64,000 bases of DNA from Gemmatimonadaceae bacterium (GTDB lineage Bacteria > Gemmatimonadota > Gemmatimonadetes > Gemmatimonadales > Gemmatimonadaceae), in assembly GCA_036844565.1 (NCBI GenBank), contig DAIUFP010000006.1, positions 93,433 through 157,432 on the forward strand, given 5' to 3'. Of the stretch, positions 3,848 through 57,407 are shown piece after piece (within the stretch, counting starts at the first letter, position 1; each line of letters begins with the position of its first letter). Under the pieces are notes generated by a model. That model did no database searches. It was not told the origin of the DNA and worked only from the letters and a program-made list of their open reading frames with translations. The position numbers and the translations under genes are program-made.

Positions 3848-3848
3848 C

Positions 3849-8662: not shown

Positions 8663-8728
8663 AGCCATCTGACGGCGCGAGTGCGCCAGGGCTATAGATC
8701 GATTTCCGTACGAGTCTCGGAGGAGACC

Positions 8729-12804: not shown

Positions 12805-14348
12805 GTCGCCAATGTGGGAGCGCCAGCGCGGCCATAGCCGCCGCCACCTGGCGTCTCGATCGTGATGACGTCGCCTTCCGTGAGCGTGACACGACACTTC
12901 GCGGGAAGCAGAACGCCGTTGAGCAGGTTGCGACCAATCTCGCCATCCGCGCCTCCAGCAACACCGCGGGGTGCATGACGCCTGCGTTCGGTGAGAAGGG
13001 TGACCGTACATGCGGTCGTCGCGCGATACGCGCGCACGATGCCATTGCCGCCGTTCTCTGCGCCGATGCCCGCGGACCCGTCGCGCAAGGCGTAGCGGTC
13101 GATGCGTAGCGGCGTCGAAAGCTCGAGTGATTCGACCGGCGTATTCAGCGTGTTGCTCATGCCAACGTGAACGCCTGATGGCCCAGGCCCACGAGAGCTT
13201 CCACCCTGTCCGCCGCCCAGCGTTTCATAGAACGTCCAGCCCGCACCGCCGAAGATGACATTGTTCATCGTCCCCTGCCCTTGCGCGGCGACGTCGACGC
13301 CGGCGTCGCCGAGTGCGGCGAGTATGGTGTCGGCGATGCGCTGCGACATCTCGACATTGCCCGCGGCGACAGCGGCCGGCCATGCGGCATTCACGGCACT
13401 GCGCTCGGGCAGCGTCAACGCGATCGCCCGTGCGATGCCATCGTTCGTGGGCACGTCGTCGTCGAGCAGGGTGCGCAACGCGAACACGGCAGCGGCGCGC
13501 GTGACGGCAGCCGGGCAGTTCACATTGCCGGCGACCTGCGGCGCGCTGCCTGTGAGGTCGAGGTGAAGTGTGCCATCCCGAATCTCCACGGCGACGACAA
13601 CGTCGATGTCGGCATCGGTCACTCCGTCGCCCTCCAGCCTGTCGTGGGCGCGGCCACGGCGCCCCTCCAGCGGAGCGAGCCTCGACCGCACGCGGCGCTC
13701 GGCGTAATCGAGTAAGGCATCACAGTCGCGCGCGAGTGCATGCGAACCTCGACGCTTCGCAAGCGCACGCCAGCCCGCAGCTCCGGCCGAGCACGCGGCG
13801 AGCTGTGCGCCCAGATCTCCGCGTCGCTCGGCCGGCGTGCGGACGTTGGCGACGATGAAGGTCAGCAGCTCCTCGTCGAGCACACCGGCGCGCACGAGTC
13901 GAATGGGCGGAATGATCAGCCCTTCCTGGACGAGCTCCGTGGCGCCCTGCGGCATGCTGCCAGGGCTCATTCCGCCGACATCGGCATGGTGCGCGCGCAC
14001 CGCCGTGTATCCGCCGATGGCTCCGTCGATCTCGACCGCTTCCACCAGCGTGAGGTCGGGAAGATGCGATCCGCCGTGATAGGGGTCGTTGAGGAGGAAT
14101 ACGTCGCCGGGTAGCGGATTGCGTGCACGGACGGCCTTCACCGACTCGGGCATCGCGCCGAGATGCACGGGTATGTGCGCAGCCTGCGCGATCATGCGTC
14201 CGCCCGCATCGAACAGCGCGGCCGATGCGTCGCGGCGCTCGCGAATGTTCGGCGAGAGTGCACTGCGAACGAGGACGGCGCCCATCTCCTCGGCAATCAT
14301 GGCAACGGCATTCGCGAGCACGGACAGCTCGAGCGCTTCGCGCGTCAT
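12801..14348 (-). CDS. hyuB: Hydantoinase B / oxoprolinase family protein
   Basis: LELSVLANAVAMIAEEMGAVLVRSALSPNIRERRD and NDPYHGGSHLPD. Confidence 0.85.
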   Translation of the reverse strand: MTREALELSVLANAVAMIAEEMGAVLVRSALSPNIRERRDASAALFDAGGRMIAQAAHIPVHLGAMPESVKAVRARNPLPGDVFLLNDPYHGGSHLPDLTLVEAVEIDGAIGGYTAVRAHHADVGGMSPGSMPQGATELVQEGLIIPPIRLVRAGVLDEELLTFIVANVRTPAERRGDLGAQLAACSAGAAGWRALAKRRGSHALARDCDALLDYAERRVRSRLAPLEGRRGRAHDRLEGDGVTDADIDVVVAVEIRDGTLHLDLTGSAPQVAGNVNCPAAVTRAAAVFALRTLLDDDVPTNDGIARAIALTLPERSAVNAAWPAAVAAGNVEMSQRIADTILAALGDAGVDVAAQGQGTMNNVIFGGAGWTFYETLGGGQGGSSRGPGPSGVHVGMSNTLNTPVESLELSTPLRIDRYALRDGSAGIGAENGGNGIVRAYRATTACTVTLLTERRRHAPRGVAGGADGEIGRNLLNGVLLPAKCRVTLTEGDVITIETPGGGGYGRAGAPTLAT

Positions 14349-29879: not shown

Positions 29880-30380
29880 CTAGCGGTAATTCCCGAACTG
29901 GAGCTGCACCCCGAAGTCCTTCGACTTGAGCAATGCGATGGCCTCCTGCAGATCGTCGCGCGACGGTCCGGTGATCCGCACCTGTTCTCCCTGGATCGAC
30001 GCCTGCACCTTCTTCAGCTTCGCGTCCTTGATCGCCGCCGCAACTTTCTTCGCGGTCTCGGGATCCAGCTCCATCTTGAGCTTGACGTCGCGCCGCACGG
30101 TGTCGCCAGCGGCCTGCTTGATCTCGCCGATGTCGAGATTCTTCACCGGCACGCCACGCTTGATCAGCTTCGTCTGCACGATGTCGAACAGCGCAGTCAT
30201 CTGGAAATCGCTGTCCGCCACGAGTGCGATCAGGTTCTCCGCGCGTTTGAAGTCGATCGTCGCCTTCGACCCCTTGAAGTCGTAGCGCTGAACGACCTCC
30301 TTCTGCGCTTGGTTGATGGCGTTGTCGACTTCCTGGAGATCAACTCCAGTGGTCACGTCAAAACTGCAAGTTGCGGCCAT
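29880..30380 (-). CDS. yajQ: YajQ-family nucleotide (c-di-GMP) binding protein
   Basis: SFDVTTGVDLQEVDNAINQAQKEVVQRYDFKGSKATIDF... over its full length (166 aa). Confidence 0.9.
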   Translation of the reverse strand: MAATCSFDVTTGVDLQEVDNAINQAQKEVVQRYDFKGSKATIDFKRAENLIALVADSDFQMTALFDIVQTKLIKRGVPVKNLDIGEIKQAAGDTVRRDVKLKMELDPETAKKVAAAIKDAKLKKVQASIQGEQVRITGPSRDDLQEAIALLKSKDFGVQLQFGNYR

Positions 30381-30679
30381 CTGTCGATTGTTTTGCGGTG
30401 GAATATTGCGCGCGGCTGCTATGTCGCGGCTCGTTTTGCACTTATGGCACTGACCTCGCCCCGACCCAGACTAATTGCTGGTGCCGAGCATCCCCAAAGT
30501 TAGGCCTATTTCACCATCTCGGCGTGGATCGCCACGACAACTGCAATGATGCGTGGTTTCATCCGTGCTCTTCTACGCGTATTTGCGGCGACTAGATGGG
30601 GAGAAATGAGCCGCCAGACCATGGCCCGTTTGCCAAGGCTTGGCCTATCGTCTCAGTAGATTCGGTATATATTCGGCTC

Positions 30680-31441
30680 ATGTCGCAGCGCACTGGAATC
30701 GAGTGGACCGATACAACTTGGAATCCGGTCACGGGCTGCACTCAGGTAAGTGACGGCTGTGATAACTGCTACGCCTTGACGCTATCCCACCGACTCCTAA
30801 GCGCGCACTACACTCGCCGGCGCCCCGCTCGTAACACGCCGACGAACCGTCGCGATCCCTTCGCAGTCAGGCTTTGGCCAGAGCGCCTAGGTGAACCTGC
30901 TCACTGGCGCCAACCACGGCGCGTCTTCGTCAACAGCATGGGCGATTTGTTTCATGTCGATGTTCCCGAGACATTCGTTCGCGAAATCTTCGAGACGATG
31001 CTTCATGAAGACCGCCACATCTACCAAGTACTGACAAAGCGCCCCGCACGCCTTGCACGCTTCGTAAAGCGCAACGCCGATTTGTTCGGAGATGCTACCG
31101 TGCCCCCGCACATCTGGGTGGGAACTTCCATCGAGAACTCTGAAACCGCTTTTCGCGCTGACCATCTGCGCAATGTCGCGGCGAGTGTGCGCTTCCTGTC
31201 ATGCGAGCCGCTGCTCGGTCCAGTGCGTCTGAACCTCGACGGACTGCATTGGGTCATCGCTGGCGGCGAAAGCGGTCACCACTACCGTGAACTCGACCTC
31301 GACTGGGTCAGGATGATTCGCGACGACTGTGAGCGTGCAGAAGTCCCGTTCTTTTTCAAGCAGGTGGGCGGGCGGACGCCCAAGGCCGGGGGACGAACCT
31401 TAGACGAGAGAACATGGAGCCAGTATCCCGCTATGCGGTAA
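30680..31441 (+). CDS. DUF5131 / phage Gp37-Gp68 family three-Cys-motif protein
   Basis: MSQRTGIEWTDTTWNPVTGCTQVSDGCDNCYA, SCEPLLGPV and VIAGGESG. The ORF extends to 30596. Confidence 0.85.
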   Translation: MSQRTGIEWTDTTWNPVTGCTQVSDGCDNCYALTLSHRLLSAHYTRRRPARNTPTNRRDPFAVRLWPERLGEPAHWRQPRRVFVNSMGDLFHVDVPETFVREIFETMLHEDRHIYQVLTKRPARLARFVKRNADLFGDATVPPHIWVGTSIENSETAFRADHLRNVAASVRFLSCEPLLGPVRLNLDGLHWVIAGGESGHHYRELDLDWVRMIRDDCERAEVPFFFKQVGGRTPKAGGRTLDERTWSQYPAMR

Positions 31442-32274
31442 GTGATGCTCCGAGGCGAGTGGAACCCGACGGCCTCTACGTTCCGACGATCAAACCGCAC
31501 TCCCTAGACAAGATCCACCTGCATAACCGTTATGCTCGCATAATGGCCACCGCCATGCGAGACAGGTGGGAGAGGCGGGCGTATGTCGGCCTGTACTCCG
31601 GAGCCGGGTACGCGAAGCTCGACAAGACCGAGGAGATCTACGAAACCTCCGCGCTGGCTGTGTTTCGACAGCCGGACCTGTTCACGGATTATGTCTTCGT
31701 AGACCGCAATCCCCTTTGCACGTCCGCGCTCAACTCCCGTATATCCCGCATCTCGCCGACAGCGAACTGCTCCGTCCTCTCGGGGGACGTCAACGCGTCG
31801 ATTGACAAGGTTCTCGCGAAGCTCCCTATGCACTCGCGCACTCAGAAGGTTCTGACCTTCTGCTTCGTCGATCCTTTCGATCTGAAGCTTCAATTCGAGA
31901 CCGTCAGGCTACTTGCGGAACGCCGAGTGGATTTTTTGATCCTCTTGGCACTTGGCTTCGATGCCAGACGCAACATCGTACGCTACTATCGCGATCTCGA
32001 TGACCGCACCATCGGCGACCTGATCGATGATCCGCAGTGGCGAGATGCATACAAGGCGTCCGGAGAGAAGCGGATCGTCCACTTCATGCTTCGGAAGTTC
32101 GATGAACAGATGCGGTCGCTTGGCTATCTCTCGGCGGCGGGGGACGAGCACCCGATCAAGAAGGGCGGCGTGCTGCTATACCACCTCGTCTTCTACAGTC
32201 GCTCCGAGCTGGCGAAGAAATTTTGGCGCGACACCTGTCTGGGAATTACGAAGCAGCCTAGTCTGTTCGACTGA
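31414..32274 (+). CDS. tcmP: Three-Cys-motif partner protein TcmP-like
   Basis: KPHSLDKIHLHNRYARIM...YVGLYSGAGY...YVFVDRNP matches my recollection of TIGR04474. It is adjacent to DUF5131 and overlaps it by 28 nt. Confidence 0.65.
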   Translation: MEPVSRYAVSDAPRRVEPDGLYVPTIKPHSLDKIHLHNRYARIMATAMRDRWERRAYVGLYSGAGYAKLDKTEEIYETSALAVFRQPDLFTDYVFVDRNPLCTSALNSRISRISPTANCSVLSGDVNASIDKVLAKLPMHSRTQKVLTFCFVDPFDLKLQFETVRLLAERRVDFLILLALGFDARRNIVRYYRDLDDRTIGDLIDDPQWRDAYKASGEKRIVHFMLRKFDEQMRSLGYLSAAGDEHPIKKGGVLLYHLVFYSRSELAKKFWRDTCLGITKQPSLFD

Positions 32275-32372
32275 GCCCACCGTCGCCTTTTCTGCCTCCA
32301 AATCCGGGCTGAAAGCTGCAAGGATCCCGGGGCGCGGAAGGTGCGACGAGGGACTCGTGATGTTCGGCGTCG

Positions 32373-32693
32373 CTAGGCGGCACTCGGAGAGAACGCGTCC
32401 CGGGCGTAAGCACCAAATTCGGCGTTGTTGCTCGCGACGTGCAGGTGAGCGTGACCGAACTTCGCCATGAGGGCCAGCGGCTCGAAGTCGCGCAACGCCC
32501 ACATAATGGTCTTCGGTTCGAAGTCCTCGATAGTCGTCTCGGCGATCCAAAGCGTGAAGTGACGCCGATCACCATTGTAGCGCCAGCCGAAGAAGTCGTG
32601 GTCGAACTGTTCGTGGGCGCTGTGAACCGCGAGTCCATGCGATGAAAACCACTCGCGAACAGCGGCGTCCATTTCGGTAGACGGAACACCCAT
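32373..32693 (-). CDS. Hypothetical protein (106 aa), islet cargo
   Basis: Clean ORF 23 nt downstream of 32717..33301 with natural-looking composition. I recognise no family. Confidence 0.5.
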   Translation of the reverse strand: MGVPSTEMDAAVREWFSSHGLAVHSAHEQFDHDFFGWRYNGDRRHFTLWIAETTIEDFEPKTIMWALRDFEPLALMAKFGHAHLHVASNNAEFGAYARDAFSPSAA

Positions 32694-32716
32694 AAATGTG
32701 CCCCACTTTCGCCGTG

Positions 32717-33301
32717 TCAGGCCGTGGCTGGTGGATCTTGCTCAAGCACGTGCTGGACGATGCGCCCCAGATGCAGGATGAAATGCACCACCTGCGCCAC
32801 GAGCAAGTGCAATGCATAGACGAACATCGCACCGAACTTCTCGATTTCGCGATACTTGGCTTTATACGTTGAGTCTTGGTGAAACGTCCCCCCATAAAGC
32901 CAGATTTCGAATATCTCACGGGGCCCGACAGTCGTGCCTTCGAAGTCCCCGTGCAATCCAAATTGGTACTGCTTCCCGTTTAGAAAGTCATTATAGGCCT
33001 TTCGCGTCTCGGCCACTGCGACGCGCAGCTCTTCGTCTCCTACCTGGTGCAAGGTGTTGCACACCTTTCCGAAATTGGTGGACTCGTCGTTCATGTAGGC
33101 GAGCCGTACCGACATCGCCAGCGAGCGGAAGGCCTCAGTGTCGAACAGTTCAAAGCTTTGATCAAACTCACCTTCTTCTGAGACGCTTGCATTCATCGAC
33201 AGTCCTTTCCCTTCAGCTACAATCGAAGCCTGCCTGATCTGGTCTACGACGTCAACGAACGCGGTGAGTTGTTCACGGTCGCGATGTGCTAGTTCCGACA
33301 T
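32717..33301 (-). CDS. Hypothetical protein (194 aa), islet cargo
   Basis: Clean ORF with mixed charged and hydrophobic composition. I recognise no family. Confidence 0.55.
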   Translation of the reverse strand: MSELAHRDREQLTAFVDVVDQIRQASIVAEGKGLSMNASVSEEGEFDQSFELFDTEAFRSLAMSVRLAYMNDESTNFGKVCNTLHQVGDEELRVAVAETRKAYNDFLNGKQYQFGLHGDFEGTTVGPREIFEIWLYGGTFHQDSTYKAKYREIEKFGAMFVYALHLLVAQVVHFILHLGRIVQHVLEQDPPATA

Positions 33302-33361
33302 GAGGCAGAGTATCCGACGCCTAGTGCGTGGTTCAGTGACTTCTCAATCCGCCCAAGGGCA

Positions 33362-33476
33362 CCCTTGAAATCGGAGCGTACGGTTGAACGACCTCCTTCT
33401 GTGCTTGGTTGATGGCGTTATCGACTTCCTGGAGGTCGACGCCCGTGGTGACGTCGAATGAAGCGGTGGTAGCCAT
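33362..33476 (-). pseudogene. yajQ: Displaced native 5' stub of yajQ
   Basis: It translates as MATTASFDVTTGVDLQEVDNAINQAQKEVVQ and then loses frame through a ~5-nt insertion relative to 30271-30287. The DFKG remnant is readable in another frame. Confidence 0.8.
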
Positions 33477-33540
33477 GGTGCGCGTGATCTCGAGTTCCGA
33501 ATGGGTTTGCGAACGCTGTAAGCTATCGCGCCCGTGCCGC

Positions 33541-34506
33541 TCAGCGCGAACCTTTACGAATGATCAGCCCGATCGACGTCGCCGCATAGCGACCCTGCCG
33601 CTTCCGGAGGTGCCGGTCGGGCGTATACGGCCGCTCGTCGACGAACCAGTCGAGCGGGTGGTTTCCAATCGTGAGGTCCAACGGCTCGACGTCGTGGCCC
33701 AACGCGCGGAGCCGCCGCACGAGCTCCTCGATATCCGCACGACGGAACATGACGGTCCGCCCCTTCGTCACCGTCGACGCATTCGACGTCAGGTTGAACT
33801 CCGTGGTGTGAACGCCCACACCACCGGGCACGAGACAATCCATCTGCCGCAACACGAACTGCATCCCGAGCTCGATCGATCCGCAGTGCTCGAACGAGCA
33901 CGAAGACCAGGTAAAGTCGAATCCGGTCAGGTCGCCCGGGATGTGGTTCATGTCGACCGGCCGGAAACTCACCCGCTCCTTGAACAGCCCCGGATCGCAG
34001 AGCCTCCGCCGATTCAAGACGTCGACAGTGCTCGACCATTCGCCACTCTCCGCCCATCCCGCCGCTCGGCTGTCCGTGGCCGCGAGGTCGGTCGCCACGA
34101 TGGTGCAGCCGCGTGCGGCGAAGTACGACGGCAGCGCTTCCTGCCCGACCGCGAAGCCGAGTCCTCGCCTTCCCGCCGAGAGACATTCACGCTCGTACAG
34201 CGCCTGTATGAGATAGCCGAACTCCCATTGCTTGCGATGAAAGCGCCACGTCTCGTCAATCTCTGCAAGCCAGTAACGAAAGGCAGGCGAATCCAGCTGC
34301 TCCGCTGTGCATAGACACGAGACGAGATGCGCGGTGGACTCGACAGAGGGTGCACCGGGATAGGTGAGTCGTGCGCCAACGTGCGTCTGCGCCGGTGTCG
34401 CATACAACGTTGTATCATCTGGCCGAAGGACTTCCGGGCGAATCTTCGGCAGCGGCCGAAACGTGCGGCGAAGGGCAAGCCACGCATCGTTGACCGACAC
34501 GATCAA
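33541..34506 (-). CDS. Class I SAM-dependent methyltransferase
   Basis: GLGFAVGQEALPSYFAARGCTIVATDL and FDFTWSSCSFEH...LVPGGVGVHT. Confidence 0.7.
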   Translation of the reverse strand: MIVSVNDAWLALRRTFRPLPKIRPEVLRPDDTTLYATPAQTHVGARLTYPGAPSVESTAHLVSCLCTAEQLDSPAFRYWLAEIDETWRFHRKQWEFGYLIQALYERECLSAGRRGLGFAVGQEALPSYFAARGCTIVATDLAATDSRAAGWAESGEWSSTVDVLNRRRLCDPGLFKERVSFRPVDMNHIPGDLTGFDFTWSSCSFEHCGSIELGMQFVLRQMDCLVPGGVGVHTTEFNLTSNASTVTKGRTVMFRRADIEELVRRLRALGHDVEPLDLTIGNHPLDWFVDERPYTPDRHLRKRQGRYAATSIGLIIRKGSR

Positions 34507-35297
34507 CAGCCCCGGTTGGAGGGCTGGTGCCCCGCCCGCATGAACACGAGCGACGTCTTCGCCACATGGCGCAGCGGAAATTCCTTCGCGAGCATGTTGA
34601 GCGTGCGAAATACCCCAGGGCTCCGGCTTGGTCCCCGATAGTCATGCCAGAAGATGAGCCCTCCTGGCTTGACCATGCGCAGCGCTTTCCGGCTGTCGCT
34701 CTCCACGTACGACGCCGCGTGCGCACCGTCGATGAAGATGAGGTCGCACTGGCCGACGTACGGCGACTCGTCGAATGTCTTGCTGTCGGCGAAGAGCTGC
34801 GTGACGCGGTCCTCCACGGCCGTGCCCTGGTAGTAGAACGAGTTGAACGCCGATTCCTTGAGCGCCGCGAGTCGATCGCCGCGCGCATCTCCCGCACCGT
34901 TGACGTACGTCGACCGCTGATCCGGCGGCAGCGTCAACGTGATGACCTCGGCGTTGTCCGGTGCATTGCGCGCCAGCAGATACGTCGTCTTGCCGGTGCA
35001 CGTCCCGAACTCGAATATGCACGTCGATTTCTTCGCGACGGCGCTGAGCACCCACGTCTCGAAGTCGCCGATTCCACCGAGGACGTTGAGCTCGGGAAGA
35101 AAGATCGTTTCCGCCGCCACCGGTGGTCCGAGATCGCCCGGCATGAGCGACGGGTCAACATCACCCGCTGCCACCTTCTGGATCGGCCACGAGCGCAGCA
35201 GCCCGGTCTGTTCGAACTTCGCGCGGTAGTGTCGCAGCTGCCAGAGTGCGGCGACCAGCAGAATGGCGAGCACGATCGCGAGCGACGTGCCAGTCAC
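34503..35297 (-). CDS. Membrane-anchored class I SAM-dependent O-methyltransferase (Methyltransf_24-like)
   Basis: N-terminal TM segment, FEFGTCTGKTTYLLA and LIFIDGAHAASYV...GGLIFWHDY. The GTG start overlaps the sigma-factor stop (GTGA). Confidence 0.7.
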   Translation of the reverse strand: MTGTSLAIVLAILLVAALWQLRHYRAKFEQTGLLRSWPIQKVAAGDVDPSLMPGDLGPPVAAETIFLPELNVLGGIGDFETWVLSAVAKKSTCIFEFGTCTGKTTYLLARNAPDNAEVITLTLPPDQRSTYVNGAGDARGDRLAALKESAFNSFYYQGTAVEDRVTQLFADSKTFDESPYVGQCDLIFIDGAHAASYVESDSRKALRMVKPGGLIFWHDYRGPSRSPGVFRTLNMLAKEFPLRHVAKTSLVFMRAGHQPSNRGC

Positions 35298-44438: not shown

Positions 44439-44843
44439 TCATGGCGAAAGCAGACGCAAGGTCGGAAAATGCGCCCGATATCGCGACGCGTCACGCGTAA
44501 GAAGCGCCGCACCGCGAATGGCTGCGTGCGCTCCGATGTAGAAATCAGGTAATGGCGACCGCCGCACCCCGCCACCTTTCCGATAGCGCAGGAAGGATTT
44601 GCCCGCGAGAAACCCTGCCTCCCAAGGCAGCGGCTCGCGACGGAACAGGTCCGTCGGCAGTGCCTCCTCGAGCTCCTCGATGCGCGCGAAGCGCACCGAG
44701 ACCTCCGCGTAGATGATCGGATTGATCATCAGCACGGACGTCTCGGCGTATTCCTCCAGCGCCGACGACGACCAGTCGAACCACACCGGATCTTCGGTAA
44801 GGACATCGAGCAAAACGTTGCTGTCGACCAGGACATCCGCCAT
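44439..44843 (-). CDS. vapC: Type II toxin VapC (PIN domain)
   Basis: VLVDSNVLLDVL... with PIN acidic residues. It overlaps vapB by 1 nt. Confidence 0.85.
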   Translation of the reverse strand: MADVLVDSNVLLDVLTEDPVWFDWSSSALEEYAETSVLMINPIIYAEVSVRFARIEELEEALPTDLFRREPLPWEAGFLAGKSFLRYRKGGGVRRSPLPDFYIGAHAAIRGAALLTRDASRYRAHFPTLRLLSP

Positions 44844-45085
44844 CAGCGCGCGCCCGCTGGCGCGTCGCGCGTGAGCGCAAGAATCTCGTCCGTCGTCATG
44901 CGCACGCTGCCTCGACCGCGCATGTGCTGCACGAGCGCGCGTCCGCGGCGCGTCCCGCCGCCCGCCTTGGTCAGGATCGCGGTGTTGCCGCGAATGGTGA
45001 ACTCGACCTCCGTGTGCGGCAGGAGCCCCAACCGCTCTCGAACCTCGAGCGGAATCGTGACCTGCCCTTTTGTGGTGATCCGCAT
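44843..45085 (-). CDS. vapB: AbrB/SpoVT-type antitoxin VapB
   Basis: MRITTKGQVTIPLEVRERLGL. GGAGG lies 5 nt upstream of the ATG at 45085. Confidence 0.8.
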   Translation of the reverse strand: MRITTKGQVTIPLEVRERLGLLPHTEVEFTIRGNTAILTKAGGGTRRGRALVQHMRGRGSVRMTTDEILALTRDAPAGAR

Positions 45086-45174
45086 ACCAACCTCCATAGT
45101 ATTACTCTGATAAGTAATACTATCGGAGATCTCGCCTTCCCGCAAGCGCGTCCAGCAGTTGCAGGCAGCGTAGT

Positions 45175-45665
45175 TCACATACTCACGCGTCCATCAAATC
45201 GGTACAAGCCCACCAGCGCCTCAGCCACATGAACGGACCCGATCGTAGCGTTTTGTTCAAGATCGGCAATGGTTCTCGCCACACGCAACACGCGGTGAAA
45301 CGCACGCGCCGAGAGATGAAGACGCTCTCCAGCACTGGCCAGCAGTTCGCGCGCACGCGATTCGCGTGCTCCGTGCGCCTCGAGCCAGCGCCCCGGTGCA
45401 CGTGCGTTGCACGTATCGTCGCTGGAGTAGCGCGCGCGTTGTCGAGTGCGGGCGAGCTGCACGCGTTCGCGAACGGCCGGTGACCCTTCGCCGGTGCAGC
45501 GCTCCGAAAGTTTCGACAACGCGACCGCTGGGACGTGCACGTGGAGATCGATGCGATCGGCGAGAGGGCCCGACAGCCGGCCGCGATACTTCGCGACCTC
45601 CGCTGCGGCGCACACACACGGATGGGAGACGTCGCCCAGGTGACCGCATGGACAGGGGTTTGCGA
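45175..45665 (-). pseudogene. comM: Displaced comM 3' fragment (Mg-chelatase C-terminal domain only), probably the original chromosomal 3' end
   Basis: NPCPCGHLGDVSHPCVCAAAEVAKYRGRLSGPLADRIDLHV...RVLRVARTIADLEQNATIGSVHVAEAL parallels the last ~165 aa of the intact comM. It starts abruptly at the NPCxCG motif. Confidence 0.85.
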
Positions 45666-46080
45666 TACCCCTACCCTGGCCTTTGCTAAACCCAAGCGCC
45701 ACTATCCTTTAGCCCTCCTTACACTAGGCGATCATCTGCTGAAAAGAAGACTCGATTTGGGACATACTCGGAAGTTTGCTGCAAGCCTGATCGGTGTTGA
45801 TCCGGAGTCCCTGAAGAACTGGGAGGACGCGAGGACCGAGCCGGCAGTCGGGTTTTTCCCTCGCCTGATCTCCTATCTGGGCTACAATCCGTTGCCGGAG
45901 GCGGAAAACAGAGGGAGCCAAATTCGGCGAGAACGGATCAGCCGCGGCCTTTCCCGGAAGGCGCTTGCTGACTCAGTAGGAGTTGATGAAGGGACAGTTA
46001 AACGAATGGAGGAAGACGTCAAGGGAATGGCAAGGCGCGCGATTCGCGCAATTTGCCATGAACTCGATGTCGAGATGTAG
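45622..46080 (+). CDS. Double-HTH XRE-family regulator at the island end (copy 1)
   Basis: Two HTH units: LGDHLLKRRLDLGHTRKFAASLIGVDPESLKNWEDARTEP and IRRERISRGLSRKALADSVGVDEGTVKRME. The nearest in-frame ATG (45622) lies inside the comM relic, so the start is uncertain. Confidence 0.6.
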   Translation: MGDVAQVTAWTGVCDTPTLAFAKPKRHYPLALLTLGDHLLKRRLDLGHTRKFAASLIGVDPESLKNWEDARTEPAVGFFPRLISYLGYNPLPEAENRGSQIRRERISRGLSRKALADSVGVDEGTVKRMEEDVKGMARRAIRAICHELDVEM

Positions 46081-46097
46081 AGAAACAAATGCACTCA

Positions 46098-46135
46098 GGG
46101 CCGACGACCACTCCAATGTCGTCGGCTCTTCTTTT
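46098..46135 (+). terminator. Rho-independent terminator after XRE copy 1
   Basis: gggccgacgac-loop-gtcgtcggc followed by tcttctttt. Confidence 0.65.
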
Positions 46136-47040
46136 GTCCGGAACTGCGTTCGAAGGATGACGCCGCGATGACGTCTTCGGATATCCTGCTCCCATGATTC
46201 CGACCAAGCCTGTGTCACTCGGCGCGCGACTCGATTGGCTCATCGGTCAAACCGGCCTAGTGAAATCCTCCAGACCAGTAAACGTCGCGCGTGACCTTCG
46301 GCTCTCGCCGCCGAACCATTGCCAGCGCCCAGTTGGTTGAGCGAGCGCGGCGATCCGGACGGACGCATAGCAGAGCGGCTCAAGCTCTACTCCTCGGGAT
46401 GGGATATTAATAATGCCGAACGGTTGGCTACGCATGGTACTGACAGCAGAGGAACTGTTCTGCCTTGCGTTTGGCCCAGACTTCCGTGAATAGGCGCTTG
46501 GTCATGAAGGAAAGTCGTCCCAGCACTCCTCACATTCAAGCTGTCTCCATTGATCAGCAGCCGAATCAACCCAGTCGGCGAGGACCTGACCGAAGACCTA
46601 GGCAGGGACCAAGTGTTGTGCGCTGGACGTGTCATATGGCGTGGGGAAGCTCCCCGTGTGCATGACGTTGAGCCCCAAGCGCTAAATGAACCGGCCGGCC
46701 GCGGAGAGGAGCGCACAGTGGTGCCTGAGTGTCGTGACCTGCTGAGGCGAAGGCCTTGTTGGCTGAGATTCATGCAGTGGAAGGCGTGTCTTGGTACAGC
46801 TCCCTGAACCTTGCACCGCACCTCATGACGGTTGTGCTTCGAATCTCTGCGCATGGTACGGTGCTGGACCGGTTGGCCGACGCCTGGATGAGCGACAGCT
46901 GGTCCGCATGGAGCCGAAGGTCGTCCGGTCGCGTAAATGGCGTGGCACACTCGACGGAAGCGCAACGGGGGACGCGGGCGGTGGCCTGACGTGACGGGAG
47001 CGGAGGGGTCATCACCGCGCCGTACTGGTCCGACGTTGTA

Positions 47041-49521
47041 TCACACAGAAAGGAGGGCCTCCTCCAGACGCTTCGTGGGAGCCGCTCGAACCACGGAGAG
47101 TACCATGGCGCCCAGCGACTCGGACGTGAACGGCTTCAAGAGAATGTGCGGTACGGCGTGTGTCGTGGCCACCAGTGTCAGCGTATCGTCGATGTACCCG
47201 GACATGAACACGAACGGCACCCCGGGAAACCGTGCTCCCACGTGGCGCGCCACTTCCGCCCCACCCCCCTTCGGCATCACCACATCCGTGAGCACCAGAT
47301 GCAGCGCGTCGATCGTGGCGCAGACAGCAACTGCCTGCACAGGATCTGCCGCCTCGATGACGTCGAACCCGAGGGCGCGAATGATCCGTGCAGCGACGGC
47401 ACGCACCTGCGGCTCGTCCTCCACGAGCAGCACAGCGCCTCGCGCCTGCATCCACCGGTCGCTTGGCGCCGTGGGCTGCGCCTCCGATCGCGCCGCGAAA
47501 GGCGCCTCGTGAGCGAGAAGCGGAAGGTACAGGGATACCGTTGTCCCTGCTCCCGGCGCGCTATCAATCGCGACGTAGCCGCCCGATTGCTTGACGAAGC
47601 CGAATACCATGGAGAGGCCCAATCCGGTTCCTCTGCCCACGCCTTTCGTGGTGAAGAACGGCTCGAAGGCATGCCGCACCGTGTCTTCATCCATTCCGAC
47701 GCCGGAATCGCGCACGCTGATGCAGCAATGTTCCCCCTCGCGCGATCCGGCGTGTGCCGCGACGAAGTGGTTGTCCAGGCGCACTTCGGCCACTTCGATG
47801 TGCAACGGCCCACCGTCCGGCATCGCATCTTTCGCGTTCACGGCGAGATTGATGATCGCCTGCTCGAGTTGCGCCGAATCGACGAGCACGGCATGCCCTT
47901 GGGTGGCCGGCACGGCGATGCTCATGCTGATGCTCTCACCCACCAGTCGCCGCAACAGCGAGCCGAGGCCACTCACGATCGCCCCCGCGTCGTTCAACGT
48001 TGGCTCAAGGACCTGCCGTCTGCTGAAGGCGAGCAGCTGTTTCGTCAGCTCAGCTCCGCGGAGCGCCGCGTGCCGAATCTCCACGAGATCCGCCCGCGCG
48101 CCGTCCGACTCATGCAGTGACTCAAGGGCGAACTCCGACGACACGAGAATCACGGAGAGCAGATTATTGAAGTCATGCGCGACGCCTCCTGCCAGGCGCC
48201 CTATCGCCTCCATTTTCTGTACCTGCCGGAATTCCGTCTCGAGGCGGCGCCGATCCGTGATGTCGAGCATGAACCCGTGCAGCTCGACGAGCTCGTGGTG
48301 GGCGCCGTACGATGCAACGACGTTTGCCTGCACGTGAACGGAGCTTCCGTCAACGCGTCGTAGTTCCAGCTCCAGACCAACGAGGCGCCCGCGCTCCGCG
48401 AGCTGTTCGATCATCGACACATGAACCGCGGCGTCGGGAAAAAGCGACGCGGTCGTCTTCGCGCACGCGTGGTGAATGGACGCATAGCCGAACAACGCCA
48501 CGTATTGCTCGTTGCAGGCGAGCAGCCGCCCATTGGGGGTGGACACAAAATTCGCCGCCGGGCTTTCCGCGAAGATGTGCGCGTAGCGCGACTCGCTCAC
48601 TTCCAGTTCCTGGGTCTGACTCGTGACTCGTCGGCGCAGGGTGAATATCCACGCTGCGACCATGGCGATGAGGACGACGATCACCAGTCCCGAGAACAGC
48701 ACTCCCAGCTTCTGGCGCACTGTCAATCCCAGGACTCTTACGTCCGACGGCAGGCGAGGCAGGAGCATATAGACCGGCACGCCGGCAAAATCCTTTCGCA
48801 GGCTGACGACCCCTGTGACGATCAGATGGTCGCCTTCACTAAACGGTCGAAGATCCACGACGGGTTGCCCGTACGCGTCCTCGAAGAGCGTGATTGCCTC
48901 TGGAGCAGCGGTCCCTTTGTGTGCTCTCGTCGTGCGATCGTCGCGCTCTGAAATCAACCCGAGACTTGGATCTCCCATGGACATCCACGGTTTCTTAACC
49001 TTCGCGCGCAACACCACGAGGTCGCCGATGTGCGCCGGCACGTCGCCGAACGCAATCGGCAGAGGTGCTGGCGAGCGACGGGGGCCCGGGACGACGCGAA
49101 CTCGGGCATCGTATAACTCCGGCATGCCGCGATACGTAGTCGCCACTCCTGTCGCCTCAATACTGTCACCGACGGAGAGCGCCGTGTTCCCGTTCCGATT
49201 AAACAGAAGGCGTCCGCCGGCGGGCGTTTGCACATACACCCGCAAGGCCGCGCTCGAGAGCGTTCCGGTGCCGATGGTGACGCGCCCGGCAATGGATACG
49301 GTGTCGGCTGTGGAGATGTCTTGAGCCGGTTGGCGGACGGCAGCGCGCTGTGCAGACGAGCCAGCCGGCGGTGAACCCGGACGCTGAGCGGAGGCGATTT
49401 GCACCATGAACGCGAGCAGCGCTAGACAACGGCATGAGGCCGCGCTGCCGATCTGGATGAGCAAGGTTTTGTCCAATGCCTGGTGATGAGCACGTCGGCG
49501 TCGACCACTCGCTGGTGGCAT
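47041..49521 (-). CDS. Hybrid sensor histidine kinase / response regulator
   Basis: Periplasmic region and TM segment, PAS-like region, HisKA (GGVAHDFNNLL), HATPase (GRGTGLGLSMV) and a C-terminal REC domain. The ORF extends to 49599. Confidence 0.85.
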   Translation of the reverse strand: MPPASGRRRRAHHQALDKTLLIQIGSAASCRCLALLAFMVQIASAQRPGSPPAGSSAQRAAVRQPAQDISTADTVSIAGRVTIGTGTLSSAALRVYVQTPAGGRLLFNRNGNTALSVGDSIEATGVATTYRGMPELYDARVRVVPGPRRSPAPLPIAFGDVPAHIGDLVVLRAKVKKPWMSMGDPSLGLISERDDRTTRAHKGTAAPEAITLFEDAYGQPVVDLRPFSEGDHLIVTGVVSLRKDFAGVPVYMLLPRLPSDVRVLGLTVRQKLGVLFSGLVIVVLIAMVAAWIFTLRRRVTSQTQELEVSESRYAHIFAESPAANFVSTPNGRLLACNEQYVALFGYASIHHACAKTTASLFPDAAVHVSMIEQLAERGRLVGLELELRRVDGSSVHVQANVVASYGAHHELVELHGFMLDITDRRRLETEFRQVQKMEAIGRLAGGVAHDFNNLLSVILVSSEFALESLHESDGARADLVEIRHAALRGAELTKQLLAFSRRQVLEPTLNDAGAIVSGLGSLLRRLVGESISMSIAVPATQGHAVLVDSAQLEQAIINLAVNAKDAMPDGGPLHIEVAEVRLDNHFVAAHAGSREGEHCCISVRDSGVGMDEDTVRHAFEPFFTTKGVGRGTGLGLSMVFGFVKQSGGYVAIDSAPGAGTTVSLYLPLLAHEAPFAARSEAQPTAPSDRWMQARGAVLLVEDEPQVRAVAARIIRALGFDVIEAADPVQAVAVCATIDALHLVLTDVVMPKGGGAEVARHVGARFPGVPFVFMSGYIDDTLTLVATTHAVPHILLKPFTSESLGAMVLSVVRAAPTKRLEEALLSV

Positions 49522-49879
49522 TCGCTGCAACCTTCGAGTATCGACCACCTGTCTGCAAGAGTTGAGGCACCTTTGCGTGACAACCCCACTTGCCCGCATA
49601 TTCCGTGAGTTATCGATTGATCAGGAGGCTACCGAATCCGTGCTGGGAGCCTTTACCATTGTTACTGTGTGCGGTAACGCGCGGTGCGTCTGTGTCAAAA
49701 CTCACTGAGCCACGAGTAAAGGCGCACGGCATGTAACCGCGTTCGCTGACACACGCGCACAAAATGATCGTATGAGAGATCACGCTTAGCGTCGTTCACC
49801 CGCCATGAACCAATTGCAAAATCCCATCGGCGGCGTGATGACCGATCCATCCATCGCGTGGCGATATCTAGTTTTCACG

Positions 49880-50050
49880 CACTCTCGACGCGCTGGCGCA
49901 TAGCTGCTGGCGCATCACCTGGCGCGCGCGACGCCAGACTCGCAAGTGCAATGGCCGGAACGTAAACATGAAGGTCAATCTGCTCAGCGAGCGGGCCCGA
50001 AAGCCGACCGCGATACTTCACAATCCCTCCGCCGCAGCACACTTGGGCCG
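49880..50050 (-). pseudogene. comM: Short third comM relic
   Basis: IVKYRGRLSGPLAEQIDLHVYVPAIALASLASRAPGDAPAAMRQRVE matches only the first ~50 aa of the repeated comM 3' unit. Confidence 0.6.
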
Positions 50051-50189
50051 TCCCTGGCTCGATATTGGGCGAGGCTAGGGGTCGGAGCATGCGCGATATT
50101 TCCCTGTCGCCGTATCGAGTATGCGCGCCATCTGCGTCGCTGACTTCGCCCAACTACGGCGGCCGCTCACGATTTGCATGCGCTGTCTC

Positions 50190-50697
50190 TCACGGCCGTG
50201 TCGGGACGGCGTCGCACTGCTCTTCAACCCGTGGGCGATAACCCAGCGCCTCCGCCACGTGATCGGACCCAATCGTGGCGCTCTGCTCCAAATCAGCAAT
50301 GGTTCTCGCCACGCGCAAGACTCGGTGGTACGCGCGCGCCGATAGACGGAGGCGTTCCCCAGCACCGGTAAGCAGACCGCGCGCGGACGACTCAAGCTCG
50401 CCGTGAATCTCCAGCCAGCGTCCCGGTGCGCGTGCGTTGCAGGCGCTTCCGCCGGAGTACCGTGCGCGCTGCCGAACGCGTGCGAGCTGCACGCGTTCGC
50501 GAATGATCGCAGACTCTTCCCCGGTGCAGCACTGCGAGAGTTTCGCCAGTGCAACCGGCGGCACATGAACGTGCAGATCGATGCGATCCGCCATTGGCCC
50601 CGAGAGCCGAGACCTATACTTCACGATCTCGGCTGCCGCGCACACACATGGCCGCGAGGGGTCTCCGAGATACCCACAGATGCAGGGGTGTGATACC
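50190..50697 (-). pseudogene. comM: Displaced comM 3' fragment (copy 2)
   Basis: HPCICGYLGDPSRPCVCAAAEIVKYRSRLSGPMADRIDLHV...HVAEALGYRPRV. I counted 18 differences in about 134 aligned aa against intact comM. Confidence 0.85.
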
Positions 50698-51178
50698 TTT
50701 TTGCGATACCCCTACCCTGACCTTTCCTAAACCCAAGCGCCACTATCCTTTAGCCCTACTTGCACTGGGCGATCACTTGCTGAAAAGAAGGCTCGACTTG
50801 GGGCAAACTCGGAAGTTTGCAGCAAGCTTGATCGGCGTTGATCCGGAGTCCCTGAAGAACTGGGAGGGCGGAAAGACCGAGCCGGCAGTTGGGTTCTACC
50901 CTCGCCTGATCTCCTATCTTGGCTACAATCCGTTGCCGGAGGCAGAGAGCAGAGGCCAGCGAATTCGTAGGAAGCGGGTCAGCCGCGGTATGTCCCGGAA
51001 GGCGGCTGCTGACGCCGCAGGTGTTGACGAAGCGACGATCAAACGAATGGAGGAAGACGTAAAGGGAATGGCCAACCGCGCTGTACGCGCGATTTGTCGG
51101 CTCCTTGATGTCGAGATGTTACGATGCTACGAAGGCCGGCGATCAAAAATGATCGTCGGCCTTTTCTCGTTGACTTGA
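50648..51178 (+). CDS. Double-HTH XRE-family regulator at the island end (copy 2)
   Basis: Near-identical to copy 1 from CDTPTL onward. The natural stop after LDVEM is lost, so the frame reads through the terminator. The start is uncertain. Confidence 0.55.
   Translation: MAARGLRDTHRCRGVIPFCDTPTLTFPKPKRHYPLALLALGDHLLKRRLDLGQTRKFAASLIGVDPESLKNWEGGKTEPAVGFYPRLISYLGYNPLPEAESRGQRIRRKRVSRGMSRKAAADAAGVDEATIKRMEEDVKGMANRAVRAICRLLDVEMLRCYEGRRSKMIVGLFSLT
51134..51170 (+). terminator. Rho-independent terminator after XRE copy 2
   Basis: ggccggcgatc-aaaaat-gatcgtcggcc followed by ttttctcgtt. Confidence 0.6.
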
Positions 51179-51383
51179 CCATGGTACCCATCGCTACTGC
51201 ACGCCTCCCTCGAAATGAAAAGGCAGCATCAAGCGGGAATAGTCGTCCCATAACACCTCCCAAACGTACGTTCTCTATTGGCCAATGACGATCCCGCCCA
51301 GGTCCGCGAAGACCTGCCTGAAGACCTGGCCAACGACCCGGGGTGGGAACCCTCGAATCAAACGCTTATGTACACATCCGCGT

Positions 51384-52457
51384 TCACGGCGACGGCTTGA
51401 ACACCCGGAGTATGGGACGCCCGCTCACATTCTCGAGCGGGAGATATACGAAATGCGTACGAGGATCGACAGCCACGGTGTGCGCGTGCGGGATGCGCAG
51501 TTCACCGACTCCACGCAGCGTGGTGCCGTCGAGCCAGAACGCAGAGAGCGCCCCTGACTCCGCAGCCACGTACAGCCGGCGCCATGTGGCATCCCATGCG
51601 AGCACGTCCGGACCGTCGGGAAGCTTGAGCGTCTGGATGGTCTTCATGCTGCGGAGATCGACGACCTGCAGGACAGCGTTTCCCTCGCTCGTGATGAACG
51701 CAAGCCGTCCCTCCTCGTCGAACGTGAAGCCATGCGGGCCATCGGATCCCGGCAGAGCGTAGCGCTGCACGATCCGTTCGCTCACAGGATCGATTGCGAC
51801 CATCTGGTTCTTCGTCTGCACGGCAACCAGGATGCAGTGCGACACCGAGTCGTACTGCGTGTTGCCGGCCTCGCCGCCAAGCGGGATAGTCGAGCGCTTC
51901 GCGCCCGTCTTCGCGTCGATCACCACGTCCGCGTCGCCTCTCTCATCCGATACAAATACCTTGTCAACCTCGGGCGCGAACGCGATACCGTCCGGAAACA
52001 CGATGTCGCCGACGCGTGAGGTGACCTTGAGCGTCCGGTCGTCGATGATCGCCACTTCGTGCGCGCCGGCGGCTGACACGTACACCTGGTGATGCGAGGG
52101 AACAGCCCGAACGCCGGTGGCGCGCGGCAGATCCATGATCTCGGTGACGACCTTGCTGCTGTCCGCATCGAAGACGATCATACGCCCGGCGTTCATGTGA
52201 TTCATGTAAATCCGGCCGGTCGCGGGGTCGACGCTCTGATAGTCGAACCGGTTGGCTGGTCCGGGGAGCGACACTTCCCGTACGAGTGTGAGCTCTGGCT
52301 TAGGAGCCGATTGCTGCGCGCGTGCCGTCGCGCGCCAGGAGGTGGGCGTCATCGACGCCGCCACGGCATAGCACGCTGGCGCAGCGGATTGTGCCACGGC
52401 GACAAGCGGCAGCAGGCAACAACCGACGATCGATGAGGCAGTGCGGTAGCGCGTCAT
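51384..52457 (-). CDS. YncE-like / YVTN beta-propeller repeat protein, secreted
   Basis: Signal peptide and repeated ...V.V.D..T.KV... blades. Confidence 0.7.
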   Translation of the reverse strand: MTRYRTASSIVGCCLLPLVAVAQSAAPACYAVAASMTPTSWRATARAQQSAPKPELTLVREVSLPGPANRFDYQSVDPATGRIYMNHMNAGRMIVFDADSSKVVTEIMDLPRATGVRAVPSHHQVYVSAAGAHEVAIIDDRTLKVTSRVGDIVFPDGIAFAPEVDKVFVSDERGDADVVIDAKTGAKRSTIPLGGEAGNTQYDSVSHCILVAVQTKNQMVAIDPVSERIVQRYALPGSDGPHGFTFDEEGRLAFITSEGNAVLQVVDLRSMKTIQTLKLPDGPDVLAWDATWRRLYVAAESGALSAFWLDGTTLRGVGELRIPHAHTVAVDPRTHFVYLPLENVSGRPILRVFKPSP

Positions 52458-53107
52458 GGTTCGAGGGGGCTTGCGGTGAGGTCATCAAACAGTGTGTACG
52501 AGTCGGCTTTCGTCCACACGCCGACCTTCCCCGGCGCCGTGAACCGCGAGTCGTGCGCGTCCATCAGCTTCTTTCCGTTGAAATACACGTCGATGTGGTC
52601 GCCTCGCATGTCGGCACGGAGGGAGTGCCAAACGCCAGACGGGACCTTCACAGCGACGCACTTCGCCTCGACTCGACGACCGTTTTGCACGTAATACCAG
52701 CAGACGTTGTCTTCGAGGGCATTCGCTCGTGTGAGGTAGTAGTTGTTCTCGTCCACGTATCGCCAGACGATGCCGCACGCACGATCGACGCGGCCGCCGA
52801 CCGGTTTGCAGCGGACCGAAACGCTGACGTCGCCGAACGACGGCGAGTTCGCCGCCGCAACGGGAAAGCGGTAGTCGGTGCCATCACTGTCCTCCTGCGC
52901 GAGCACATTCGGTCCGCTCGGCGCGTCTGCGACTGCGCGTACCACCCAGTGGCCGGTGCGACCAGATCCGGTGCGACCGAGTGAGAATCCCGGTGGAGCA
53001 GTTCCCGCGGCGGCGCTGTCAAAATTCCAGGTCTTTGGCGCTTGGTCGACGCCAAATGAAAGAGCGGCAACACAAAGCCAGATTGGCGACAGTGGGACGG
53101 ATCTCAT
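52454..53107 (-). CDS. Secreted LamG / DUF1080-like (concanavalin-like) domain protein
   Basis: W.F...G..P.GF..., CGIVWRYVDENNYYLTRANALEDN and GKVGVWTKADSYTLFDDL. Confidence 0.55.
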   Translation of the reverse strand: MRSVPLSPIWLCVAALSFGVDQAPKTWNFDSAAAGTAPPGFSLGRTGSGRTGHWVVRAVADAPSGPNVLAQEDSDGTDYRFPVAAANSPSFGDVSVSVRCKPVGGRVDRACGIVWRYVDENNYYLTRANALEDNVCWYYVQNGRRVEAKCVAVKVPSGVWHSLRADMRGDHIDVYFNGKKLMDAHDSRFTAPGKVGVWTKADSYTLFDDLTASPLEP

Positions 53108-53123
53108 AGCGGCTCTCCGACGC

Positions 53124-55385: not shown

Positions 55386-55574
55386 AACTGTATCGTCAGA
55401 CTAAGCCAAGATCAATCCCTGAAACCATGGGCAGAGCCGGGCCATTTCGACCCGTCCATCCGGGGAGCCACTAGACACAACATCACAAGTGAACCATCAT
55501 TCAGGCTTGTCGCAGGGGCAGCGCAGTGCGCCGCTCCAAAGTGTCCCTCAATCATCGACTGCTCGGAGACAACG

Positions 55575-57251: not shown

Positions 57252-57407
57252 GCCACCTGGCGCGGGGAGATCTTCTACCAGCGCTGACTGAGGTTTGCCC
57301 CTGGCATACGCTTGAGGAGAGTCCATACGTGCCACTTGGGGGCTCGCAGCGTGCAGATGGCATTCTCCACAGACCGGGGGGATCTCGGCGAAATGTCAAA
57401 CACCCGA

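Follow-up and report, generated by a model that had tools for sequence, protein, structure and literature searches.

The window analysed here is a stretch of 64,000 nucleotides (nt) from a contig of a soil Gemmatimonadaceae bacterium, and all positions are numbered relative to it. We focus on its yajQ gene, which encodes a protein of the YajQ/DUF520 cyclic-di-GMP-binding family, and on a four-gene islet of lower GC content that separates this gene from a second copy of its own 5′ end. An earlier note on this DNA had described an intact yajQ with a second 5′ copy about 3 kb away on the same strand. The features of the duplicated 5′ end are as follows (loci used for comparison carry L numbers).

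29880-30380, minus strand: intact yajQ, 166 amino acids, YajQ/DUF520 family (PF04461, E = 7.9e-61; NF003819, E = 2.4e-59)
30289-30335, minus strand: right core copy, gene nt 46-92, the exchange region; near-identical to the left copy at 33385-33431
30336-30380, minus strand: replacement yajQ 5′ end, element-borne, codons 1-15 (MAATCSFDVTTGVDL); 16 of its 45 nt differ from the stub
30381-30679, no strand assigned: element-borne upstream region of yajQ, shared divergently with the DUF5131 gene; islet versions share a conserved stretch of about 60 nt beside the ATG (30381-30440)
33362-33384, minus strand: element-derived tail, by alignment a degenerate version of yajQ nt 93-113, its frame broken by a 5-nt insertion (ACCGT)
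33385-33476, minus strand: displaced native yajQ 5′ end (the stub), codons 1-31, native-like when compared with L138, L005 and L006
33477-33540, minus strand: native yajQ upstream spacer, presumed native promoter, homologous to the 64-nt spacer between MT321 and yajQ in L138

The duplicated yajQ 5′ end

The two copies form a direct repeat of 82 nt with 87% identity and a spacing of 3096 nt (30281-30362 and 33377-33458; blastn E = 3e-20 within the locus), with a 17-nt extension (30271-30287 and 33362-33378). Overall, the duplication spans 113 nt: the distal copy carries the ACCGT insertion after nt 92, and homology ends at gene nt 113, in a tail with the motif CAACCGTAC...TTTCAA.GGTGC. Differences are unevenly spread: a codon-wise count gave 16 in nt 1-45 and only three, including one at nt 93, in nt 46-93. 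Alignment of the sequences upstream of the two ATGs showed that they are unrelated. The earlier note had counted 19 mismatches by hand in the two 93-nt segments, had followed weaker homology to 30271/33362 across a frame-breaking insertion of about 5 nt, and had called the regions beyond the ATGs unrelated; all of these observations held when recomputed.

The replacement start, MAATCSF, differs from the native MATTASF by two residue changes, and its other differences are synonymous and AT-richer. Judged from these alignments, the working yajQ is a mosaic, with nt 1-45 derived from the element and the remainder native. A putative replacement promoter presumably lies within 30381-30440; a sigma-70 consensus scan found no promoter in 30381-30679, and the promoter and terminator scan was uninformative. 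The stub reads as a 47-amino-acid open reading frame (ORF; 33333-33476), and was called as a 47-amino-acid 'YajQ (weak)' gene in L001, L003 and L004. Together with the native spacer, the stub ORF now lies 31 nt upstream of p194-p106 (32373-33301) on the same strand, and the presumed host yajQ promoter (33477-33540) may drive these two islet genes. A repeat search yielded only chance-level short pairs as terminal inverted repeats, and no RNA genes or tRNAs were found at the junctions.

The islet proper (30381-33361, 2,981 nt) has a GC content of 0.576, compared with 0.646 in the rest of the window (z = -4.1), and every other segment of the same size has a higher GC content (minimum 0.606). Its tetranucleotide distance of 0.34 is the largest deviation in the 64 kb (other segments: mean 0.18, maximum 0.245). 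The lower GC content that the earlier note had estimated from single lines of sequence is thus confirmed. Four other contigs, from assemblies in ENA, JGI and Logan, show the same structure and are 99.9-100% identical. This rules out an assembly artefact, which the earlier note had named as a way in which its reading could fail. The four contigs represent one strain and not independent insertion events.

Empty sites and the origin of the two 5′ ends

A YajQ scan of species-level genomes gave 80 loci (L005-L084), nearly all labelled as Gemmatimonadaceae, Gemmatimonadales or Gemmatimonadota. The genomes compared are fragmentary metagenome-assembled genomes (MAGs), which are prone to losing mobile DNA. 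Across these 80 loci, the ancestral gene order is LepB-Sigma-YajQ-RimO. In the three sister species L005, L006 and L138, whose YajQ proteins are 99%, 98% and 97% identical to that of the window, the order is LepB-Sigma-MT264-MT321-yajQ, with a single native yajQ 5′ end and no islet. This is the empty site that the earlier note had predicted, in which yajQ lies directly beside the methyltransferase gene at 33541. None of the 80 species-level loci contained a second yajQ 5′ copy or a larger element at yajQ; a 16-nt second match to yajQ in L020 is due to chance, as it falls within a protease gene whose product contains the same peptide, SFDVT.

Comparison with these relatives reveals which of the two 5′ ends is native. 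The first 45 nt of the stub have two mismatches with L138. The same segment of the working yajQ has 14 mismatches with L138 and 11-18 with every native relative compared, and the native 5′ end most like it among the 80 loci is identical at only 34 of 45 nt. From nt 46 onwards, the working yajQ has 2-5 mismatches per 45 nt with L138, L005 and L006. These mismatch profiles bear out the claim of the earlier note that the intact gene carries a foreign 5′ end and upstream region, with a putative promoter, and that the native stub has been displaced. Across its 31 codons, the stub differs from L138 at eight positions and from L005 and L006 at ten, all of them synonymous. This suggests that the stub diverged while it was still part of a working gene, and that it has hardly changed since it was displaced. 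Duplication in situ followed by divergence was rejected, as the deviant copy is the functional one rather than a pseudogene, and the stub shows only synonymous differences from L138.

The yajQ locus is a general hot spot for gene gain, with two hypervariable spacers: across the 80 loci, the sigma-yajQ spacer ranges from 2 to 6,890 nt and the yajQ-rimO spacer from 4 to 7,229 nt. A DUF4153 gene is confined to a subset of these loci around yajQ. The methyltransferase-like genes MT321 and MT264 (33541-35297) are a lineage-specific insertion between sigma and yajQ, and occur as a pair only in the window, L005, L006 and L138; MT321 has no Pfam or NCBIfam match.

Related islets at yajQ in other lineages

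Close relatives of the islet protein TcmP are 81-92% identical to it, and at their loci the DUF5131-TcmP gene pair likewise lies between sigma and yajQ, oriented as in the window. Islet relatives occupy the same site in at least four other Gemmatimonadaceae lineages. The earlier note had asked whether other copies would also sit at yajQ, and they do so in the following arrangements.

L139-L143 (L139 is GCA_964438255.1; TcmP 92% identical): sigma, 316 nt, stub, TcmP, DUF5131, 1.2 kb, yajQ
L144: sigma, TcmP, DUF5131, about 8 kb, yajQ; stub absent
L146-L148: yajQ, DUF5131, TcmP
L149: sigma, TcmP, DUF5131, native-type yajQ; stub absent

The window, L139 and L144 have in common the foreign start (ATGGCCGCAACTTGCAG..., MAATCSF) as well as some 60 nt upstream of it, and L147 has a variant start, MSTTCSF, with the same upstream block. 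L139 represents the only other lineage that keeps the stub. The window and L139 stubs have a common tail, which carries the identical ACCGT insertion and ends at the same point. A remnant of p194, its first 17 or so codons, is also kept in L139, fused to the TcmP flank. This means that p194, and presumably p106, was ancestral to the element and was deleted in L139. In L146 (P0032 lineage), a DUF4153 gene at 2828-3487 follows TcmP and replaces the stub and sigma, which suggests that this locus was rearranged.

The stubs resemble the native genes of their own lineages. The window stub reads MATTASF, as in the islet-free L138, L005 and L006. The L139 stub reads MAQTASF, is 96-97.5% identical to the native genes of L015 and L018 (81-nt alignment, nt 12-92), and lies in a spacer that shows homology to the native spacers between sigma and yajQ in L009, L016 and L018. 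Homology between the native genes and the L139 stub ends exactly at nt 92. Nucleotide divergence between the islets is 13.5-19%, and in a LepB+Sigma tree the islet carriers are interspersed among islet-free species. Diverged islets next to undecayed, lineage-native stubs point to separate and fairly recent insertions, and make a single ancient event much less likely.

Geometry of the insertion

In the window, the switch from native to element sequence in the stub and the switch from element to native sequence in the gene share the interval of about nt 42-57, whereas in L139 both switches lie near nt 90-92. The foreign segment covers nt 1-45 in the window and L144, and apparently nt 1-90 in L139. 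As the switch points coincide within each lineage, they suggest one reciprocal exchange with a circular molecule. Had a linear fragment entered by two independent crossovers, the position of the second would have been free over the roughly 450 nt of yajQ or even further out. Both core copies of the window (nt 46-92) carry the variants A72 and T90, which are absent from all three sister species; such sharing would fit the repair of a heteroduplex in the course of a homologous exchange, or conversion at a later time. Should the L139 segment derive from the element, then the exchange point is not fixed, which favours a homology-dependent process.

In L139, yajQ nt 46-90 (7909-7953) differ from every other sequence at 9-15 of 45 nt, and alter three conserved residues (ALNQAAKEVSQ). 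In an otherwise ordinary yajQ, this segment represents either element sequence or a local burst of change at the exchange site.

Cargo genes of the islet

The four islet genes were searched with the profiles of Pfam, NCBIfam, PADLOC and PHROGs.

30680-31441, plus strand: DUF5131, phage Gp37/Gp68 family, three-Cys radical-SAM-like (PF07505, E = 7.2e-88; PDC-M41B, 1.7e-88; phrog_2045, 4.2e-88)
31414-32274, plus strand: TcmP, three-Cys-motif partner protein (TIGR04474, E = 4e-28; PDC-M41A, 9e-17)
32373-32693, minus strand: p106, an orphan of 106 amino acids with no family in the four libraries
32717-33301, minus strand: p194, a rare family; mostly helical model whose C-terminal helix is long and hydrophobic

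By comparison with its homologues, the most likely start of DUF5131 is 30680 (MSQRTGIEW) rather than the mechanical ORF start at 30596. Its translation contains the three-Cys stretch CTQVSDGCDNC (C-x7-C-x2-C), and it also shows a weak match to TIGR04471, a radical-SAM family. The DUF5131 and TcmP genes overlap by 28 nt on one strand. The AlphaFold model of TcmP (pLDDT 90.7) has its best PDB matches in RlmJ, with an E value of 5e-6 and a TM score of only about 0.5, and also matches other class I methyltransferases. RlmJ is a 23S rRNA m6A methyltransferase, and RlmJ-type enzymes have DPPY where TcmP has D-P-F. In 60 TcmP homologues D153-P154-F155 is invariant, and a glycine-rich G-x-G-x-A stretch is conserved. 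TcmP has no Pfam methyltransferase match, and a sequence search of all four islet proteins against the PDB returned nothing. TcmP models as a fold like that of class I S-adenosylmethionine methyltransferases, and would resemble RlmJ.

Together, DUF5131 and TcmP match both models of the PADLOC candidate PDC-M41, and their genes are adjacent and co-oriented. In 45 metagenome loci, they are adjacent wherever the contig reaches the neighbouring gene (40/45). Both gene orders occur among these loci, yajQ, p106 and p194 are never present, and the pair is often alone among housekeeping genes. We found no published functional study of the pair. We predict that it is most likely a nucleic-acid modification or defence module.

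The two remaining genes are rare. In 5.8 billion proteins, p106 has two non-self relatives, both in unrelated contexts, and p194 has 12. The p194 relatives (L085-L090) adjoin AbiE, BrnT/A, an AAA_15 ATPase, MmeI, Mrr and IS elements, and given these defence-island-like neighbourhoods p194 could be a stand-alone defence or accessory gene. Its AlphaFold model (pLDDT 90.7) has no fold match in the PDB (best E 0.19).

Two points of the earlier note about the cargo need qualification. It had called the cargo uncharacterised, which is not wholly so, given that DUF5131-TcmP is a PADLOC candidate system. It had also asked whether the four genes travel together. Only DUF5131-TcmP is present in all islet versions, although the p194 remnant in L139 shows that p194 was once part of that version too. 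As distant p194 and p106 relatives are solitary elsewhere, the four genes are not an indivisible unit.

Searches for a recombinase, a helper or a vehicle

Profile searches found no recombinase or transposase family in the four islet genes, nor in two genes that the L139 version has in addition (one XRE-type helix-turn-helix (HTH) gene and one orphan of 189 amino acids), with the same four libraries. Together with the repeat search, this upholds the statement of the earlier note that the islet has no integrase, transposase or terminal inverted repeats. For the whole window, 50 ORFs (most of the long ones) were searched against Pfam, and the precomputed annotation of the genes on L001 and L002 was read; neither gave a recombinase match. 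Collections of genomes, metagenomes, viruses, phages and plasmids yielded no large version of the islet. Neither its tail nor its foreign start had a match in viral contigs, and the TcmP profile matched neither viral contigs nor phage genomes, with two distant matches on plasmids. A same-strain empty-site allele was not present among the matches listed (15 of 40 cluster members read, of 113). Around DUF5131-TcmP pairs, 119 neighbouring ORFs fell into 107 matched families, the best 25 of which were mostly housekeeping and included no integrase; this is weak evidence.

Proposed mechanism and alternatives

We conclude that the islet very probably belongs to a mobile, self-compensating family that enters the start of yajQ by a single reciprocal exchange. 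In its free form, the element would carry a mimic of the yajQ start of about 113 nt, with some 60 nt of putative promoter sequence upstream. The mimic would consist of codons 1-15, which have the same function in a different wording, a core of about 47 nt with nearly the sequence of the target, and a degenerate tail with a broken frame. The whole element would be inserted when the mimic undergoes one reciprocal (Campbell-type) exchange with the chromosomal yajQ. The host promoter and the first 31 codons would remain as a stub that points into p194-p106, and the working yajQ would be rebuilt from the promoter and start of the element, so that insertion would be free of cost to the host. The islet would encode only cargo, namely DUF5131-TcmP and the two orphan genes, and the exchange itself would have to be carried out by the cell.

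Our tentative preference is for an integrative islet of 3,096 bp, from a family specific to the yajQ 5′ end in Gemmatimonadaceae, that relies on homology-dependent recombination by the host across the 113-nt mimic. Host recombination is slightly favoured because neither a recombinase nor a helper was found, the mimic is long and the exchange point appears to vary.

Several observations weigh against this preference. RecA-type recombination would be very inefficient on a homologous stretch that is so short and has diverged so far, to about 65% in nt 1-45 and with an indel in its tail. No long identical block lies near the apparent crossover in L139, which would fit a sequence-specific enzyme better. 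L139 nt 46-90 could be lineage-specific, in which case all crossovers could lie near nt 45-57, as a site-specific enzyme gives. The conservation of the replacement N-terminus across lineages resembles the integrase-driven SXT and dusA elements (PMC8409611). A helper element could have been missed in fragmentary MAGs, and a circular form, a same-strain excised site or a transfer vehicle was not seen.

Alternatively, an unlinked, trans-acting site-specific recombinase, either the integrase of a helper element elsewhere in the genome or a host enzyme, may insert and excise the islet, and we regard this as about as likely as host recombination. The islet would then be a hitchhiker, like a cis-mobilizable element (CIME) or IMEX, that keeps its attachment (att) site and cargo. 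Its direct repeats are intact and attL/attR-like while integration genes are absent, and its replacement promoter and N-terminus follow the design of the prfC and dusA elements (PMC8409611). The short, diverged homology and the L139 junction without long identity are consistent with such an enzyme, as are two more recombinase-less islands in the window, bounded by duplicated comM 3′ ends, and other DUF5131-TcmP islets bracketed by duplicated gene ends (both described below). However, the 80 related species have neither a helper element at yajQ nor a second 5′ copy, and no recombinase was found in the scanned ORFs of the 64-kb window. Furthermore, the apparent crossover position varies between lineages, and a 113-nt mimic far exceeds what an integrase needs.

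A broader and unlikely reading is that DUF5131-TcmP islets form an unrecognised mobile class that enters gene ends with a replacement end and without a canonical recombinase, either through the chemistry of the pair or by host recombination via the mimic. This reading is based on three unrelated targets that fit it: the yajQ 5′ end, the 3′ end of a DNA methylase gene (L092/L091) and the 3′ end of a peptidase S9 gene (L100). In L092, a DUF5131-TcmP pair (3444-5409; TcmP about 50% identical to that of the window) lies just after a DNA-methylase-like gene, and in L091 the pair (409-2267) has methylase fragments on both sides and a different upstream gene. A direct repeat of the methylase 3′ segment brackets the pair in L092/L091 (58-84 nt, 77-79% identity, E 7e-11). 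In L100, a 37-nt repeat (8728-8764 and 13365-13401; 84% identity, E 3e-6), of which one copy is the 3′ end of the peptidase S9 gene, brackets an islet of 4.6 kb, which besides TcmP-DUF5131 contains an antitoxin-like and a PIN gene, and no recombinase-sized ORF. The bracketing of pair islets by gene ends is a lead and not a rule, as most other pair loci lack such repeats.

It is improbable that every copy decayed from a larger integrase-bearing element (a prophage, an integrative conjugative element (ICE) or an integrative mobilizable element (IME)) in which the integrase was lost by internal deletion and the cargo, under selection, stayed together with both att sites. Internal deletion does occur in this family: L139 lacks p106 and all of p194 after codon 17 or so, and L144 and L149 lack the stub and tail. 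Secondary insertions of 1.2 kb and 8 kb also lie between DUF5131 and the promoter block. However, the two stub-bearing versions share both ends (the tail with the p194 start, and DUF5131 with the promoter block), with no integrase remnant between them. As both stubs are essentially undecayed, the integrase would have to be lost immediately and independently after each insertion, and no large version is present in the collections searched.

That the DUF5131-TcmP pair itself confers mobility, by a new, non-canonical insertion mechanism that targets gene ends, is quite improbable too. The pair is the sole gene content common to all yajQ versions and forms a two-gene module in metagenome loci, where it often stands alone among housekeeping genes. 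The two unrelated pair islets in L092/L091 and L100 are likewise bracketed by a duplicated end of a neighbouring gene, without a recombinase-sized ORF. However, TcmP models as a methyltransferase fold and DUF5131 is radical-SAM-like, and neither resembles a nuclease or recombinase. A bracketing repeat is missing from most of the pair loci whose flanks are adequate, and in L149 the pair lies between sigma and a native-type yajQ without any duplication. Retention of the pair is also explained by selection for useful cargo.

Finally, a single ancient insertion that was inherited vertically and lost precisely in most descendants, without recent mobility, would agree with the similar divergence of islet and flanks (81% vs 83% between the window and L144, 81% vs 83-85% between L139 and L144) and with the restriction of all carriers to one clade of about a dozen species, but it is very improbable, because a neutral stub should be heavily decayed whereas the window stub, compared with the functional L138 gene, has eight synonymous changes and no non-synonymous one, and shows MATT, a derived state of its own subclade, the L139 stub is as close to native L015 and L018 as noted above, and at least three to four precise losses would be needed in a small tree in which 0/80 species keep a stub.

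Duplicated gene ends at comM and wider meaning

A further case of duplicated gene ends is present at 45156-63286 in the same window. The Mg-chelatase-like gene comM is intact (61742-63286, minus strand), and two extra copies of its 3′ end of about 470 nt are found at 45193-45660 and 50220-50690, with a small fragment at 49878-50060. The copies bound two tandem islands of lower GC content, A (45.66-50.19 kb) and B (50.69-61.74 kb), which share a 300-nt module with 87% identity. Island A contains an HTH gene, a 192-amino-acid orphan and a hybrid histidine kinase. Island B contains an HTH gene, a beta-propeller protein, chrA/chrB (chromate resistance; chrA and chrB lie within 53124-55385), PepSY, DUF1529, FTR1 and a TonB receptor. 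A PIN/MazE-like toxin-antitoxin pair (44439-45178) adjoins the first comM fragment. In L139 and L144, comM is close to an NAD-synthase gene, with one small ORF between them. The region 51384-52457 was considered as the N-terminal half of a split comM; this was ruled out, as it encodes the beta-propeller protein, and the real picture is one of tandem duplicated comM 3′ ends. No recombinase was found among the ORFs scanned in these islands, which would be further examples if DUF5131-TcmP islets belonged to the unrecognised class described above.

To our knowledge, the only elements known to insert at the start of a gene and to supply a replacement for that start are large ones with an integrase of their own. 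Here, a 3-kb element without a recognisable recombinase uses the same gene-start trick, yet has entered several species separately. If host recombination over a 113-nt mimic suffices for this, there would be a class of small islands that move without integrase or transposase marker genes, and such islands would be systematically overlooked by island-finding software that relies on these markers. DUF5131-TcmP also gains a clear natural context, as a self-contained two-gene module that moves horizontally.

Comparison with known systems

The closest parallels to the yajQ islet are the SXT/R391 ICEs at prfC and dusA elements such as IMEVchUSA3, which insert at a 5′ end and replace the promoter and N-terminus of their target (PMC8409611). 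Like these elements, the islet is located within the first tens of codons of a housekeeping gene and is flanked by direct repeats. It provides a new upstream region and a similar N-terminus and displaces the native end, so that the ORF remains intact (166 amino acids) and its expression is predicted to continue. As in those systems, the target site is unoccupied in close relatives (L005, L006 and L138). However, the SXT-prfC and dusA elements are 20-100 kb long, encode transfer or mobilisation functions besides a tyrosine integrase and a directionality factor, and have a short, fixed core, whereas the islet is 3.1 kb long, lacks an integrase and a directionality factor, and has a 113-nt mimic with apparently variable exchange points. 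The unusual trait of the islet is therefore the absence of a recombinase and not the swap of promoter and 5′ end, which is an already known strategy (PMC8409611).

By definition, CIMEs are flanked by att sites but no longer have the genes for integration and transfer (PMC6323972). The islet is like them in having intact attL/attR-like repeats and cargo only, with no integration or transfer genes. CIMEs are derived from, and moved by, a related ICE at the same att site; for the islet, no such element was found at yajQ in the 80 related species, whose genomes are fragmentary MAGs.

Phage 21 and e14, in the icd gene of E. coli, are prophage elements that have an integrase and target a 3′ end. They share with the islet a replacement gene end that is mostly synonymous and a displaced native end that persists as a pseudo-fragment. 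Unlike them, the islet targets a 5′ end and has no recognisable integrase. In the minimal mobile elements of Neisseria, cassettes are exchanged between conserved flanking genes by homologous recombination. Here too, there is no recombinase on the islet, and alternative inserts are found between conserved flanks, as in the variable sigma-yajQ spacer (2-6,890 nt). Minimal mobile elements exchange by double crossover and leave no duplicated flank, unlike the islet with its partial duplication and replacement start.

Finally, PDC-M41 and PDC-M30 in PADLOC (DUF5131 with TcmP) are candidate systems only, for which we found no published function. Here, the pair is the conserved cargo of a site-specific islet and not part of a larger defence island. 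The yajQ islet adds three features to the known systems: a long mimic of a gene end, several separate insertions without a recognisable recombinase or helper, and an uncharacterised cargo of radical-SAM-like and methyltransferase-like proteins.

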